Source of the DNA: a virus
Taxonomy: Duplodnaviria > Heunggongvirae > Uroviricota > Caudoviricetes
Virus record (IMG/VR): IMGVR_UViG_2802429236_000001
Location: 1 to 32,076 of that record
Reading direction: 5' to 3' (one strand)
DNA: 32,076 bases
The stretch's first letter is position 1. Each line of letters starts with the position of its first letter. The notes beneath the pieces are model-generated. The model saw only the letters and a program-made list of their open reading frames with translations. It ran no database searches and had not been told where the DNA came from. This document shows positions 5,564 to 11,335 of this stretch, piece by piece. A program made the position numbers and the translations under genes.

Positions 5564-6316
5564 ATGAACCTTGAAGCCTTACCAAAATATTACTCCCCAA
5601 AATCTCCAAAATTGAGCGATGACGCACCGGCGACAGGCTCGGGTGGTTTAACAATTACGGATGTGATGGCTGCGCAGGGGATGGTGCAGTCGAAAGCACC
5701 GCTTGGGTTTGCCTTATTCCTGGCAAAAGTTGGTGTTCAGGATCCTCAGTTTGCGATTGAAGGTCTGCTCAATTACGCGATGGCACTGGATAACCCGACA
5801 TTGAACAAATTGAGTGAAGAAACCCGGTTACAGATCATCCCTTACCTTGTGAGTTTTGCCTTTGCTGATTATTCCAGGTCTGCGGCAAGTAAGGCTCGCT
5901 GTGAGCATTGTGCTGGTACTGGATTTCATAATGTATTGCGCGAAGTGGTGAAACACTCCAGAAGCGGGGAGTCTGTTATCAAGGAAGAGTGGGTGAAGGA
6001 ACTATGTCAGCATTGTCATGGTAAGGGAGAAGTCAGCACAGCGTGCAGAGGGTGTAAGGGTAAAGGTATTGTCCTGGATGAAAAAAGAACCCGGCTTCAT
6101 GGTACGCCTGTTTATAAGATTTGTGGGCGTTGCAATGGTAACCGGTTTAGCCGTTTACCAACCACACTGGCGCGGCATCATGTCCAGAAGCTGGTACCTG
6201 CCCTGACGGATTATCAGTGGTACAAAGGATATGCAGATGTCATTGATAAACTGGTTACAAAGTGCTGGCAGGAAGAAGCATATGCAGAGACACAATTGAG
6301 AAAAGTGACAAGATAA
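5564..6316 (+). CDS. Late-gene antitermination protein Q (Cys-rich, zinc-binding type)
   Basis: 250 aa, good RBS (GGAGAACGAGC-ATG). Multiple CxxC/HC pairs (CEHCAG, CQHCHG, CRGCKG, CGRCNG). It sits immediately upstream of the lysis cassette with a promoter plus terminator pair right after it. Confidence 0.65.
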   Translation: MNLEALPKYYSPKSPKLSDDAPATGSGGLTITDVMAAQGMVQSKAPLGFALFLAKVGVQDPQFAIEGLLNYAMALDNPTLNKLSEETRLQIIPYLVSFAFADYSRSAASKARCEHCAGTGFHNVLREVVKHSRSGESVIKEEWVKELCQHCHGKGEVSTACRGCKGKGIVLDEKRTRLHGTPVYKICGRCNGNRFSRLPTTLARHHVQKLVPALTDYQWYKGYADVIDKLVTKCWQEEAYAETQLRKVTR

Positions 6317-6678: not shown

Positions 6679-6801
6679 GAGTCAAGTTCGCTTCTGAGAA
6701 ATCATCAACAGGGTAGTGTTTGACTGAAATAATAAACAGACTGTCATTAAGATCCCTTCCCTCATATCTGAGAGGACCAACAGCAATTAAGAGGGGGCTA
6801 A

Positions 6802-7188
6802 ATGTCCGATCCGATTTCCGGTACTGGGCTGGCTGGTGGTGCCCTGACGGGGGCCAGTGTTTATGGACTGCTGACCGGAACTGATTACGGCGTTGTATTT
6901 GGCGCATTTGCAGGGGCTGTATTCTACATAGCAACAGCAGCAGATCTGAGTGCATCACGCCGACTGGCATATTTTATCGTGTCATATATTGCCGGGATCC
7001 TGTGCTCTGGGTTGGTTGGCTCCAAGCTGGCGAACTTGACCGGATACAGTGATAAACCTCTGGATGCTATTGGTGCCGTAATCGTCTCTGCTTTAGCCGT
7101 TAAAATCCTGACATTCCTGAATAATCAGGATATCGGCTCGCTGGTGGCGCTCATAACACGCCGGGGAGGTTCAGGTGGAGCTAAATGA
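6802..7188 (+). CDS. Putative holin (multi-TM membrane protein)
   Basis: 128 aa, strong RBS AAGAGGGGG. Gly/Ala-rich hydrophobic segments. First gene of a cluster ending in the endolysin. Confidence 0.5.
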   Translation: MSDPISGTGLAGGALTGASVYGLLTGTDYGVVFGAFAGAVFYIATAADLSASRRLAYFIVSYIAGILCSGLVGSKLANLTGYSDKPLDAIGAVIVSALAVKILTFLNNQDIGSLVALITRRGGSGGAK

Positions 7189-7456
7189 CCCGACAGCAAC
7201 TATAAATGCGCTGTTATGTGCTTGTGTTGTTATTACTCTGATGTTTTATCGTCGTGGTGATTCGCGGCATCGTCCTTGGGTTTCACGTTTAGCCTGGTTG
7301 ATTACTGTTACATACAGTGCTGTTCCGTTGGCCTATCTCTGTGGGATTTATCCTCATTCCTCATGGCCCATTATCGTGGCGAACACTATTTTTCTTTCCG
7401 TGCTGGTGGCCGTCAGAGGCAACGTTGCACGTCTGGTTGATCATCTGAGGCACTAA
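7175..7456 (+). CDS. Putative holin/antiholin-like membrane protein
   Basis: 93 aa, GTG start preceded by GGGGAGG. Two to three hydrophobic helices. Overlaps the upstream gene; its stop overlaps the endolysin ATG. Confidence 0.45.
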   Translation: MELNDPTATINALLCACVVITLMFYRRGDSRHRPWVSRLAWLITVTYSAVPLAYLCGIYPHSSWPIIVANTIFLSVLVAVRGNVARLVDHLRH

Positions 7457-8067
7457 TGAACCAACAATTATTTCAAAAGGCGGCTGGTATTAGCGCCGGG
7501 CTGGCTGCGCGCTGGTTTCCGCACATTGATGCGGCGATGAAGGAATTCGGCATTACAGCACCAGCGGATCAGGCAATGTTTATCGCTCAGGTAGGCCATG
7601 AGTCGATGGGGTTTAGCGCCGTAGTTGAAAATTTTAACTACACACCATCTGCGCTGGTGGCGACGTTCGGAAAGAGGATCACACAGCAGCAGGCTGATGC
7701 CCTTGGTAGAACATCCGGACATGCAGCTCGTCAGGATGCTATTGCCAATCTGGTGTATAGCAACCGACTGGGTAACAAAGCACCCGGTGATGGCTGGAAA
7801 TATCGTGGTAGAGGATTAATTCAAATCACTGGTCTCCGTAATTATTGCATCTGTGGCTACGCACTAAAACTCGACCTTGTTACCCAGCCTGAATTGCTGG
7901 AACAGGATGAATACGCCGCGCGCTCAGCTGCGTGGTTCTATGCTTCCCGCGGTTGCCTGCTTCATTCTGGCGACCTGGGACGCGTCACGCTGCTTATTAA
8001 TGGCGGTAGTAACGGTCTGGATAAACGCCGCGCGCTGTTTAACCTGGCGAAATCGGTGCTGGTGTGA
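7456..8067 (+). CDS. Endolysin, glycoside hydrolase family 19 (chitinase-like)
   Basis: 203 aa; QVGHESMGF...YRGRGLIQITGLRNY...INGG.NGLDKR resembles GH19 phage endolysins, recalled from memory. Confidence 0.75.
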   Translation: MNQQLFQKAAGISAGLAARWFPHIDAAMKEFGITAPADQAMFIAQVGHESMGFSAVVENFNYTPSALVATFGKRITQQQADALGRTSGHAARQDAIANLVYSNRLGNKAPGDGWKYRGRGLIQITGLRNYCICGYALKLDLVTQPELLEQDEYAARSAAWFYASRGCLLHSGDLGRVTLLINGGSNGLDKRRALFNLAKSVLV

Positions 8068-8182
8068 GGGACGGCGGCAAGTTATCCAAGCACCCATGTA
8101 ATTTAAAAAACTGGGTAGAAAGAGATGGACCGCAGGAAGAATGGCTGCTATTCTTCAGTTACTTTCGCTGGAGATGTATGGA

Positions 8183-9064
8183 ATGCTTAAAAAAGCGACA
8201 ATTAATATAAAAACTGATGAGATAAATCTCTATCAAGGAGACTGTCTTGAGTTGCTAACCATGATGGACGATTCTTCTGTAGATCTCATCGTTACTTCAC
8301 CACCGTATGCAGATCAACGAAAGAGGACTTATGGTGGCATTGCCCCTGACAAGTATGTTGACTGGTTTTCACCTATAGCGGAGCAACTGCTACGGGTTCT
8401 TAAGCCTTCAGGCTCCTTTGTGCTTAACATTAAAGAGAAGGTAGTGAATGGCGAAAGACATACATATGTTTTAGAGCTTATTCTTAAAATGCGAGAGCTG
8501 GGTTGGCTGTGGACAGAAGAATATATCTGGCATAAGAAGAATTCATTCCCTGGTAAATGGCCTAATAGATTCAGAGATTCTTGGGAACGCTGTCTGCACT
8601 TTACAAAAAACAGAAAGTTTGCAATGTACCAAGAAGCGGTTATGGTTCCTGTGGGGGACTGGAAGAATGAGAGGCTAAAAAAATTAAGCTCGCGGGACAT
8701 GATGAGGGATGAGTCGCGAGTTGGTAGTGGGTTCGGAAAGAACATTTCAAACTGGCAGGGAAGAGAAATGGCATACCCGACGAATGTGCTGCACATGGCA
8801 ACTGAATGTGGTAACAAAGGCCACAGTGCAGCATTCCCCGAAGTTCTTCCTGAATGGTTTATTCGTTTGTTTACAACAGAAGGCGATGTTGTTTTGGATC
8901 CGTTTGCAGGCTCAGGCACTACACTTGTGGCGGCATCTCGCCTGTCCAGAAAGTCAGTAGGTTTTGAATTGCTTGATGAACACTGCCAAGTAGCTAAAGA
9001 ACGACTTGGGCTGGAAAGAAAAAGGTTAACTAGCGTAGTAAGTTACAGCAAAAAAGCTGAATAG
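8183..9064 (+). CDS. Orphan beta-class DNA amino-methyltransferase (motif IV TSPPY, motif I DPFAGSGTT), possibly N4-cytosine type
   Basis: Motif order IV-then-I defines the beta class. SPPY rather than D/NPPY is more typical of N4C enzymes, which is an inference. Markedly AT-rich relative to flanking genes. Alternative starts at 8141 and 8174. Confidence 0.7.
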   Translation: MLKKATINIKTDEINLYQGDCLELLTMMDDSSVDLIVTSPPYADQRKRTYGGIAPDKYVDWFSPIAEQLLRVLKPSGSFVLNIKEKVVNGERHTYVLELILKMRELGWLWTEEYIWHKKNSFPGKWPNRFRDSWERCLHFTKNRKFAMYQEAVMVPVGDWKNERLKKLSSRDMMRDESRVGSGFGKNISNWQGREMAYPTNVLHMATECGNKGHSAAFPEVLPEWFIRLFTTEGDVVLDPFAGSGTTLVAASRLSRKSVGFELLDEHCQVAKERLGLERKRLTSVVSYSKKAE

Positions 9065-9116
9065 GTTTCTGGTTTATGGTAGTTTTCTCCTTGGTTAACC
9101 AAAGAAGGAAAATACA

Positions 9117-9398
9117 ATGTCAGGAACATGCATCATTGAAGGATGTGGTAGACATGCAGATAAAATTATCGGTGTGCGTCTGAGACGTGAACTGGATAAT
9201 TTATCTGCAATTTGGGCCCACAATACTAACGCTTATTTGTGTGATGAACATGCAGCTATGGGATTTGATGTAGAAGTAACATTTACCCCTCGGGATGACA
9301 AGACCATTAGAACAGTTGTAAGCAACGGTGATGGTGATCCAGTTGTTCGACTGAAAGCAATCACCAAACCTGTCAACCCAGATGGAACGGAAGACTGA
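9117..9398 (+). CDS. Small Cys/His-rich hypothetical protein (93 aa)
   Basis: RBS AAGGAAAA. Cys5, Cys10, His13, His35, Cys42, His45 could form a zinc site. Followed by a strong terminator. Co-located with the MTase. Confidence 0.5.
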   Translation: MSGTCIIEGCGRHADKIIGVRLRRELDNLSAIWAHNTNAYLCDEHAAMGFDVEVTFTPRDDKTIRTVVSNGDGDPVVRLKAITKPVNPDGTED

Positions 9399-9416
9399 GG
9401 TTAGTATATTTATTAT

Positions 9417-9441
9417 AAAACCGCCTTCGGGCGGTTTTTTT
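9417..9441 (+). terminator. Intrinsic terminator ending the MTase moron
   Basis: AAAACCGCC-ttcg-GGCGGTTTT followed by TTTTTA. Confidence 0.7.
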
Positions 9442-9467
9442 ATGCTTGCAAAAACTAAACTGCTGAG

Positions 9468-9745
9468 ATGGTAAAGATAATGGGAATCATAGAAATTATT
9501 GCTAGCGGTATTGTTGTGCTGGTTGCAGCCGCACTCAGCGTTTTTTACTGGCAATGTTCGTGGTTGTGGAAAAGTAGCAGAGAAAGCCAAACAGCAGCGC
9601 ACCGAAGAGAACGCAGTGGCGATCGTTGCAGCAATATCTGGGCTTCACTGCCGGGGCTGGTTATGGTCAGTTTGAGCATAAAGTTGACAGCCTGATTGCA
9701 AAATTCAAAGAAGCTGGCGGAACGGTCAGAGAGATTGAGGTATGA
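9468..9745 (+). pseudogene. Chimeric, frameshifted remnant: unknown TM-encoding 5' fragment joined to the 3' end of a lambda-type R endolysin gene
   Basis: From about 9621 the track frame reads DRCSNIWASLPG. After an apparent 1-nt deletion the next frame reads [27 protein letters not shown] and stops in the ATGA overlap with Rz. This matches the lambda R C-terminus as I recall it (...DRCSNIWASLPGAGYGQFEHKADSLIAKFKEAGGTVREIDV). The 5' part has no clear RBS. Confidence 0.5.
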
Positions 9746-10185
9746 GCAGAGTCACCGCGATTATCTCCGTTCTGGTTATCTGCATCATCGTCTGCCTGTC
9801 ATGGGCGGTTAATCATTACCGTGATAACGCCATCACCTACAAAAAGCAGCGCGATAAGGCCGCATCCATTATCGCTGACATGCAGAAACGTCAAAGTAAT
9901 GTAGCTGAACTCGATGCCAGATATACAAAGGAGCTTGCTGATGCTAACGCGACTATCGAAAGTCTTCGTGCTGATGTTTCTGCTGGTCGTAAGTGGCTGC
10001 ACGTCAAAGCAGTCTGTCCGGACATGCATAAAACCACCGCCGCCTCCGGCGTGGATGATGCTTCCAGCCCCAGACTTACTGACACCGCTCAACGGGATTA
10101 TTTCGTTCTCAGAGAGCGCATCGAAACCATAACTAACCAATTGAATGGCCTGCAAGAGTATGTGAGATCACAGTGTTCATATTAG
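9742..10185 (+). CDS. Rz: i-spanin Rz (lambda-type)
   Basis: 147 aa; [34 protein letters not shown]...[18 protein letters not shown] is near-identical to lambda Rz at both ends. Confidence 0.85.
9941..10132 (+). CDS. Rz1: o-spanin Rz1 (lipoprotein), embedded in the +1 frame of Rz
   Basis: Lipobox VVSGC, then TSKQSV...[10 protein letters not shown]...TPLNGIIS, matching lambda Rz1. Start chosen at the Met giving a 19-residue signal peptide; 9914 and 9974 are alternatives. Confidence 0.75.
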
Positions 10186-10223
10186 AAAAGTCTTATCATG
10201 AGATTTTTGTATATGGATGCATT

Positions 10224-10598
10224 ATGTCTCAATACGCGCGCGCCGCTTTAATCGCTTATCATTTGGTTGCTGATAGCTCAATGCCTCCTCGTGATGTATG
10301 GGATACAGCTGTCGCAGAGGTTACAGAAAGCGAATCGTCAAGAAAGAAGATATGCCCAAGGGCAACATTTCTCGCCCTAGCGGATAGCGGTTACCTCAAG
10401 AATGTAAAACCACTGCATGGGGAGAAAAAGGGCGGTAAGTTGTACCAAAGGGCAATTGAAGTTGCGAATCTGATTCTTGATTTACCCGGAATCAGTAAAG
10501 CTGAATTGGTTGATAAAACTGGTTACAAAGACAGGCAAGGGTCTTATGACCTGATTCTCGCTCTGTATCATCATGAGCAACTCCAGCGACCGGAATAA
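10224..10598 (+). CDS. Hypothetical protein (about 124 aa), accessory/moron candidate
   Basis: Open frame 10173..10598 in the track. No convincing RBS, so the start is uncertain. Lower GC than the core genes. No family recognised. Confidence 0.4.
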   Translation: MSQYARAALIAYHLVADSSMPPRDVWDTAVAEVTESESSRKKICPRATFLALADSGYLKNVKPLHGEKKGGKLYQRAIEVANLILDLPGISKAELVDKTGYKDRQGSYDLILALYHHEQLQRPE

Positions 10599-10715: not shown

Positions 10716-10919
10716 ATGAAAATTCTCTGGGTCATCAGTCTTTTGTGTAGTGCTATTGGATTTATTGAAGGAATCCTCGGGGTTTTCGGTGCTCAGAGTG
10801 CTCCACAACAGGCTGCAGGTGCAGCAATGGGAGTAGCATGGGCAGTTATTCCATATTGTATTTGTCGTGCTATCCAACAATTGCGCCCTCGAGAAGTCAT
10901 TATTAAAAAGGAAGAATGA
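10716..10919 (+). CDS. Small two-helix membrane protein (67 aa), moron candidate
   Basis: Strong RBS AAAGGAG 8-9 nt upstream. Two hydrophobic helices. Flanked upstream by a 9-bp perfect inverted repeat (ACTTTACTA ... TAGTAAAGT, 10644-10681) and downstream by a hairpin plus T-run near 10951-10975. Confidence 0.5.
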   Translation: MKILWVISLLCSAIGFIEGILGVFGAQSAPQQAAGAAMGVAWAVIPYCICRAIQQLRPREVIIKKEE

Positions 10920-10984
10920 CCAGATCTTATCCGGTGTTTTTTCTGTCTAAGCCTCGCGTCGCGGGGCTTTTTATTGGAGCCAGC

Positions 10985-11335
10985 ATGCCACCACGAACCC
11001 CAAAAGCCTGCCGCGTTCGCGGCTGCCGCCAAACCACCACTGACCCGTCAGGCTACTGCGAAAGCCACAAAAGCGAAGGCTGGAAACAATACAAGCCAGG
11101 ACAATCCCGTCACCAGCGCGGCTACGGTTCGAAGTGGGATGTTATCCGCGCGCGCGTGCTGAAGCGTGACAAAGGCCTGTGTCAGTTGTGCCTGCGTGTC
11201 GGTGTGGTGCGTGAGGCGAAAACCGTTGACCACATCATCCCTAAAGCGCATGGCGGCACTGATGCAGACTGCAATCTGCAGAGCCTGTGCTGGCCGTGTC
11301 ATAAGACGAAGACGGCCCGTGAACGACTGAAGTGA
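10985..11335 (+). CDS. HNH endonuclease (packaging-associated, HK97 gp74-like position)
   Basis: 116 aa from the ATG with a GGAG RBS. CQLC...DHIIPKAHGGTDADCNLQSLCWPCHKTKT is an HNH motif. Sits directly upstream of the terminase genes. Confidence 0.75.
   Translation: MPPRTPKACRVRGCRQTTTDPSGYCESHKSEGWKQYKPGQSRHQRGYGSKWDVIRARVLKRDKGLCQLCLRVGVVREAKTVDHIIPKAHGGTDADCNLQSLCWPCHKTKTARERLK

Follow-up and report, generated by a model that had tools for sequence, protein, structure and literature searches.

The segment at positions 9480-9745 of a virus sequence of 32,076 nucleotides (Caudoviricetes; IMG/VR record IMGVR_UViG_2802429236_000001, referred to here as the window) is very probably the non-functional product of a single illegitimate crossover, guided by microhomology, between two phage lysis cassettes. 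The 3' part of the segment is the end of a lambda-type R endolysin gene, while the 5' part is the beginning of an i-spanin gene that belonged to a GH19-type cassette. A first-pass annotation, made from the letters alone, had described the region as the scar of a module exchange, in which a frameshifted remnant of R was fused to a transmembrane (TM) fragment that did not come from R, and had named the GH19 set as the foreign partner and R as the resident. The scar, the R remnant and the non-R origin of the TM fragment were borne out by blastn, by alignment and by the gene context. Either cassette may have been the resident one, because a single crossover between two phages yields the same product either way. 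The present analysis extends that reading in that it identifies the TM fragment, adds a second frameshift and places the joint in a precisely mapped microhomology. The lysis genes, the moron, both remnants, the crossover site and the predicted ORF discussed below all lie on the + strand.

Lysis genes flanking the scar

The window is a lambdoid prophage, and in its late region the Q antiterminator gene (5564-6316) is followed by a GH19-type cassette. Its first gene encodes a holin of 128 aa (6802-7188; PF16931, E 1.2e-34; phrog_198, E 5.4e-43) with 96.9% nucleotide identity to E. coli prophage cassettes, the next a second holin of 93 aa (7175-7456; PF05449, E 7.3e-20; phrog_217, E 6.3e-32) and the third a GH19 endolysin of 203 aa (7456-8067; phrog_181, E 7.9e-86; PF00182, E 7e-8). 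On the far side of the scar there is an intact Rz i-spanin gene of the lambda/P22 type (9742-10185, 147 aa), whose full-length product has an N-terminal TM segment and a PF03245 match (E 3.5e-39) and covers positions 1-153 of the 154 in phrog_13 (E 4.8e-70). Embedded in Rz in the +1 frame is a gene for a lipoprotein of 63 aa (9941-10132) with a lipobox, VVSGC, that supplies the lipid-bearing Cys and with a proline-rich PPPPP stretch; we take this Rz1 o-spanin to be the counterpart of lambda Rz1. The upstream membrane proteins, the GH19 endolysin, the methyltransferase moron (PF01555) and the retained lambda-type Rz/Rz1 pair, all of which the earlier reading had listed, were thus recovered, and the predicted working lysis set consists of the two holins, the GH19 enzyme and lambda-type Rz/Rz1.

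The modules on either side of the lysis region were 92-98% identical to E. coli phages, for example mEp460 and vB_EcoM-720R4, which carry lysis cassettes of other kinds. The GH19 gene changes ancestry towards its 3' end. Positions 6701-7940 had 97% identity to cassettes that are common in E. coli prophages, such as locus L001, in which the GH19 gene is joined directly to an Rz-type gene, while the last ~127 nt (7941-8067) matched, at 85-90%, the type of GH19 gene that precedes a PHROG-1026 i-spanin.

Remnant of a lambda-type R gene

Pairwise alignment showed that 9620-9745 corresponds to codons 118-158 of lambda R, the last 41 codons of the gene, with 122 of 127 nucleotides identical to R of phage E212 and 120 of 127 to R of lambda. 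When 9440-9760 was used as a blastn query against 50,697 phage records, only the part from 9620 onward was matched; the hits, in lambda, HK and P22-like phages, were 95-96.5% identical (E 3e-58 to 2e-55) and ran from the 3' end of R into the beginning of Rz. The sole gap against E212 and lambda was a 1-nt deletion in a run of G at 9653-9656, where E212 has GGGGG and lambda GGGC. The remnant is accordingly read in two frames, DRCSNIWASLPG in one and a stretch of 29 residues in the other, and its stop codon overlaps the ATG of Rz in the sequence ATGA at 9742-9745. The earlier assignment of the last ~125 bp before Rz to the C-terminus of lambda R, with a change of frame by one nucleotide and an ATGA end, was therefore upheld, and the identity to lambda R on which it depended was highly significant.

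A lambda R-type endolysin (phrog_90, ~158 aa) has a catalytic N-terminus and an uninterrupted frame. The window holds only codons 118-158, and these are broken by the deletion in the G run. The only plausible role left to the R tail would be to provide the native upstream context for the start codon of Rz.

Identity of the transmembrane fragment

The hydrophobic segment MGIIEIIASGIVVLVAAALSVFYW is encoded within an ORF at 9468-9695, in which the start consistent with the family described below is the ATG at 9480. What pointed to this family was the 3' end of the GH19 gene, which is 85-90% identical to a subset of GH19 genes from E. coli prophages and viral contigs. The next gene in these relatives begins 5-7 nt on and encodes a protein of 89-93 aa with a TM segment and a helix, for example MGFETLIGIAAAVIAAIAGAFGLGHIRGSSKAEAKADQQRTEDNAVATVAAADRR, which matches PHROG 1026, 'Rz-like spanin' (E 3e-33). 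A lipoprotein ORF of PHROG 1275 comes next and overlaps it, in the architecture of overlapped two-component spanins (PMC6139136).

In the window, the 9480 frame encodes MGIIEIIASGIVVLVAAAL and the 9535 frame encodes SAFFTGNVRGCGKVAEKAKQQRTEENAVAIVAA, and taken together the two line up, in order, with residues 1-51 of the PHROG 1026 i-spanin family if one frameshift is allowed. A family HMM was built from 82 unique members (91 profile positions). The second stretch alone matched positions 19-51 of the 91 with E 2.4e-8, while the frame-repaired fragment matched positions 1-51 with E 1e-11 to 4e-10 and the phrog_1026 profile with E 5e-6. Once repaired, the fragment has the N-terminal TM segment and the helical periplasmic segment that fit the profile, and at the DNA level it was 79-83% identical to family members over 9571-9633. 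These matches identify 9480-9633 as the 5' remnant, ~51 codons long, of the i-spanin gene of the GH19 cassette itself, with the TM segment in the 9480 frame, the helix in the 9535 frame and the gene cut at the joint. The hydrophobic segment is indeed foreign to R, to which it had no blastn match, as had been proposed, but it is not the unrelated fragment that it was taken for.

A complete i-spanin of this family is 89-93 aa long in a single frame, while the fragment covers 51 of the 91 profile positions in two frames and ends at 9633. The cognate overlapped o-spanin gene (phrog_1275), which follows the i-spanin gene in loci L024 and L110, is absent directly downstream in the window, where the R tail and Rz/Rz1 are found instead.

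The +1 frameshift within the fragment lies between 9534 and 9547. The likely site is the T6 run at 9541-9546, since removal of one T gave an ungapped alignment from residue 1 of the family profile. The site is nevertheless given as the interval 9534-9547, because a repair at 'CTCA' scored higher (40.9 bits) than the repair of the T run (35.7 bits), yet it is the T-run repair alone that lets the alignment begin at HMM position 1.

The search for an intact allele from which the i-spanin fragment could derive gave none; the closest relatives were ~60% identical as proteins and, across the last 60 nt, ~80% identical as DNA. The best match among viral contigs was 60%, species-representative genomes gave none, and metagenome contigs yielded copies of the scar along with relatives at 53-56%. 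For want of such an allele, we infer precisely where the first frameshift lies and what the parental i-spanin gene read across the joint. Positions 9440-9619 had no match in the phage collection at the sensitivity of blastn, the single-frame peptide had no tblastn match in phages, and the frame-repaired peptide had none in a word-based search. Two other identities had been considered for the fragment: the signal anchor of a SAR endolysin, which was dropped when the i-spanin match emerged, and the gene that follows the moron in Citrobacter, Pectobacterium and Pantoea, where the genes in question proved unrelated.

Position of the joint

The homology to R begins at 9620 and the homology to the i-spanin family ends at 9633, so that both parents are matched over the 14 nt CGATCGTTGCAGCA (9620-9633). 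The corresponding sequence is CGACCGTTGCAGCA in R of lambda and E212, and CGAGCGTTGCGG and CAACGGTCGCAGCA in i-spanin relatives; the 14-mer is identical to lambda R at 13 of 14 positions. The crossover is accordingly placed, on the alignments, inside 9620-9633. The earlier estimate of 9615-9621 had the approximate place right, although the true overlap lies slightly to the right of it.

The minimal segment for efficient pairing is 23-27 nt for Red-beta and 31-34 nt for RecA (PMC3945230). Since 14 nt is below both values, the event is best described as illegitimate recombination guided by microhomology. The i-spanin identity of the TM fragment implies that one crossover, i-spanin with R, would account for the entire right-hand joint. 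Direct reading of the sequence showed that the i-spanin and R frames disagree at the joint, and the fusion was therefore out of frame from the outset.

A moron between the GH19 gene and the i-spanin start

The homology to the canonical cassette ends at 8069, 2 nt past the GH19 stop codon, and is seen again from 9480, the ATG of the i-spanin gene. The two genes are 5-7 nt apart in loci L024 and L025 and in viral loci, compared with 1,410 nt in the window, where the former spacer is filled by a moron (8070-9479). The term is said to come from Juhala and Hendrix, for extra genes inserted between adjacent phage genes, and the unit fits it in that a gene for an N4/N6 DNA methyltransferase (PF01555, 8141-9064), a gene for a Cys/His protein of 93 aa (9117-9398) and a strong intrinsic terminator of its own (9-bp GC-rich stem at 9417-9438 with a T tail) are placed exactly between genes that are neighbours in relatives. 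It may differ from other morons in its promoter, since a crude consensus scan of the + strand over 8000-10300 showed no sigma-70-like site.

The core of the moron, 8119-9442, is 81% identical to a unit in Citrobacter prophages, where it sits between a different endolysin gene (phrog_873) and a different i-spanin gene (phrog_214). Prophages of Pectobacterium and Pantoea have copies with 71-74% identity to it. The Citrobacter and Pectobacterium copies share the conserved terminator, and the homology among the copies stops right past it.

Distribution of the scar

Scar-bearing assemblies from Logan, ENA and IMG were compared. The T6 and G4 runs were the same in 11 independently assembled contigs, and the block from ~7400 to 9750, containing the GH19 gene, the moron and the scar, was nearly invariant among them, with 0-4 differences. 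The differences clustered on either side, over the holin genes (6760-7400) and past 9750 within Rz. The contigs carry differing Q genes upstream and three variants of Rz downstream, of 147, 145 and 155 aa. An invariant block with variable flanks argues that the joint is young and travels from prophage to prophage through homologous recombination in the flanking sequence. No DNA match to 9400-9625 or to the moron (8060-9625) was found in 5,426 complete E. coli genomes.

The occurrence of the same 2.3-kb block beside different Q and Rz genes suggests a unit that has spread recently. Rz itself is a mosaic: the scar-bearing locus L007 diverges from ~9770, with a break in homology at 10005, and L014 diverges from ~9835, their Rz products being 145 or 155 aa long, while the E. 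coli prophage L001 shares just 9871-10005 within Rz.

Proposed origin and alternative explanations

One parent would have carried the genes for two holins, the GH19 endolysin, the i-spanin and the o-spanin in that order, with the methyltransferase moron inserted ahead of the i-spanin gene either before or after the crossover. The other would have carried a lambda-type S-R-Rz/Rz1 cassette. The crossover would have taken place ~51 codons into the i-spanin gene of the first and 41 codons before the end of R in the second, at 14 nt that the two shared by chance. The recombinant would have lost the 3' end of the i-spanin gene and the o-spanin gene from one parent and the holin gene and the catalytic part of R from the other. 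It would have remained viable because it retained one complete set of two holins, GH19 endolysin and Rz/Rz1. The half-genes were joined out of frame, and each appears to have gained an indel in a homopolymer later, in the T6 and in the G4 run, as decay began.

The same joint may have been formed in two or more steps, for example by an earlier deletion in a phage that had both cassettes in tandem. The data do not separate such a course from a single crossover between phages, and lambdoid lysis regions are reshuffled repeatedly, as the three Rz variants behind the same scar illustrate. One event at the shared 14-mer suffices, however, and a relative with tandem cassettes was sought and none was found, so that a multi-step origin seems unlikely. 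Both frameshifts lie in homopolymer runs, T6 at 9541-9546 and G4 at 9653-9656, as might be expected if sequencing errors were hiding an intact fusion gene, but the runs were identical in independent Logan, ENA and IMG assemblies. Even with both indels repaired, the i-spanin and R frames still disagree at the joint and the product has neither the catalytic part of R nor the C-terminal half of the i-spanin; we give sequencing error hardly any credence. Programmed ribosomal frameshifting on the T6 run, by which a functional truncated i-spanin-like product would be made, could draw on the fact that the family frame would be recovered if the ribosome slipped by +1 on TTT-T at 9543-9546. The run is followed by neither a stimulatory element nor a slow codon, the product would end at 9675 without the C-terminal region, the cognate o-spanin gene is absent and no relative with such an arrangement was found, which leaves this explanation with a practically negligible probability.

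Gene finders called an ORF of 71 aa at 9480-9695 (75 aa when read from 9468). Its open frame, ATG start, good N-terminal TM helix and identity in 21 contigs could point to a real, newborn small membrane protein, for example a modulator of lysis timing that uses the TM segment of the i-spanin. The reading of the ORF runs in turn through the i-spanin TM segment, the i-spanin helix out of frame, 12 codons of R in frame and then R out of frame, so that it resolves into pieces of two known genes and is a three-frame chimera. When the 51 aa of the single frame were searched against 5.8 billion clusters, the ORF itself was the only protein returned, as an identical sequence in a cluster of one sequence from 21 contigs; an intact, conserved small protein in a single frame, the finding that would have spoken against a scar, did not appear. 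The Shine-Dalgarno sequence that formerly served the i-spanin gene (GAGG at 8066-8069) is now cut off from the ATG at 9480 by the moron. Since the entire 2.3-kb block is invariant, the identity of the ORF among contigs is uninformative on selection either way and is no evidence of constraint. A newborn protein is very unlikely on these grounds, and it is highly improbable that an inner-membrane peptide is expressed late and alters the timing of lysis, or the translation of Rz through its stop codon 47 nt upstream of the Rz start. Most likely the 71-aa ORF is not a gene, and the 'hypothetical protein' at 9480-9695 is better annotated as two pseudogene fragments.

Comparison with known systems

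The scar, read as the product of one microhomology-guided crossover, is a clean instance of the known and ordinary mosaicism of lambdoid phages. In the model of Hendrix and Juhala, the 'novel joints' of lambdoid mosaics are reportedly made by illegitimate recombination. The scar resembles such joints in the abrupt switch of ancestry between unrelated sequences, in a surviving set of genes that keeps its function and in the later spread by homologous exchange in the flanks. Most surviving novel joints sit at gene borders. The one in the window lies, in contrast, inside genes on both sides, which is why both remnants and the 14-nt microhomology are still visible. The debate on the origin of mosaic joints has been summarised (PMC3945230). 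Relaxed recombination by Rad52-like phage recombinases, described in the same paper, explains the exchanges on both sides of the scar, in the holin genes and in Rz. At the joint itself the shared 14 nt fall short of the quoted minimum of 23-27 nt.

Relative to the lambda S-R-Rz/Rz1 cassette, the window keeps the last 41 codons of R (95-96% identical), the ATGA overlap, Rz and the embedded Rz1, but lacks S and codons 1-117 of R, the catalytic part; the R tail is frameshifted and the endolysin function is predicted to come from the GH19 enzyme. The architecture of overlapped two-component spanins has been defined (PMC6139136). The window shares the holins, the GH19 gene and the start and position of the i-spanin gene with the enterobacterial holin-holin-GH19-i-spanin (phrog_1026)-o-spanin (phrog_1275) cassettes. 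It differs from them in that the i-spanin gene is cut after ~51 codons and frameshifted, the o-spanin gene is missing and the moron parts the GH19 gene from the i-spanin start.

The scar raises no new biological question, and its value is that it shows clearly, down to the single base, how lambdoid lysis cassettes can be rebuilt. Two unrelated genes were broken by recombination at 14 nt that match by chance, and this was tolerated because the product still had holins, endolysin and spanins as a complete set; the outcome indicates that a GH19 endolysin with its holins can pair with the lambda-type Rz/Rz1 of another cassette.

Downstream of Rz, the window encodes a DUF6979 (phrog_5039) protein with no assigned function (10173-10598), a hydrophobic ORF of 67 aa (10716-10919) and an HNH endonuclease (10916-11335), after which the terminase genes follow. 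Phage vB_EcoM-689R6 (ON470584.1) has a gene of 477 nt (7191-7667) between its holin and Rz genes whose 3' end matches the R remnant, with 84% identity over 9620-9720; its public annotation is 'terminase small subunit', and it is probably a mis-annotated R endolysin gene.
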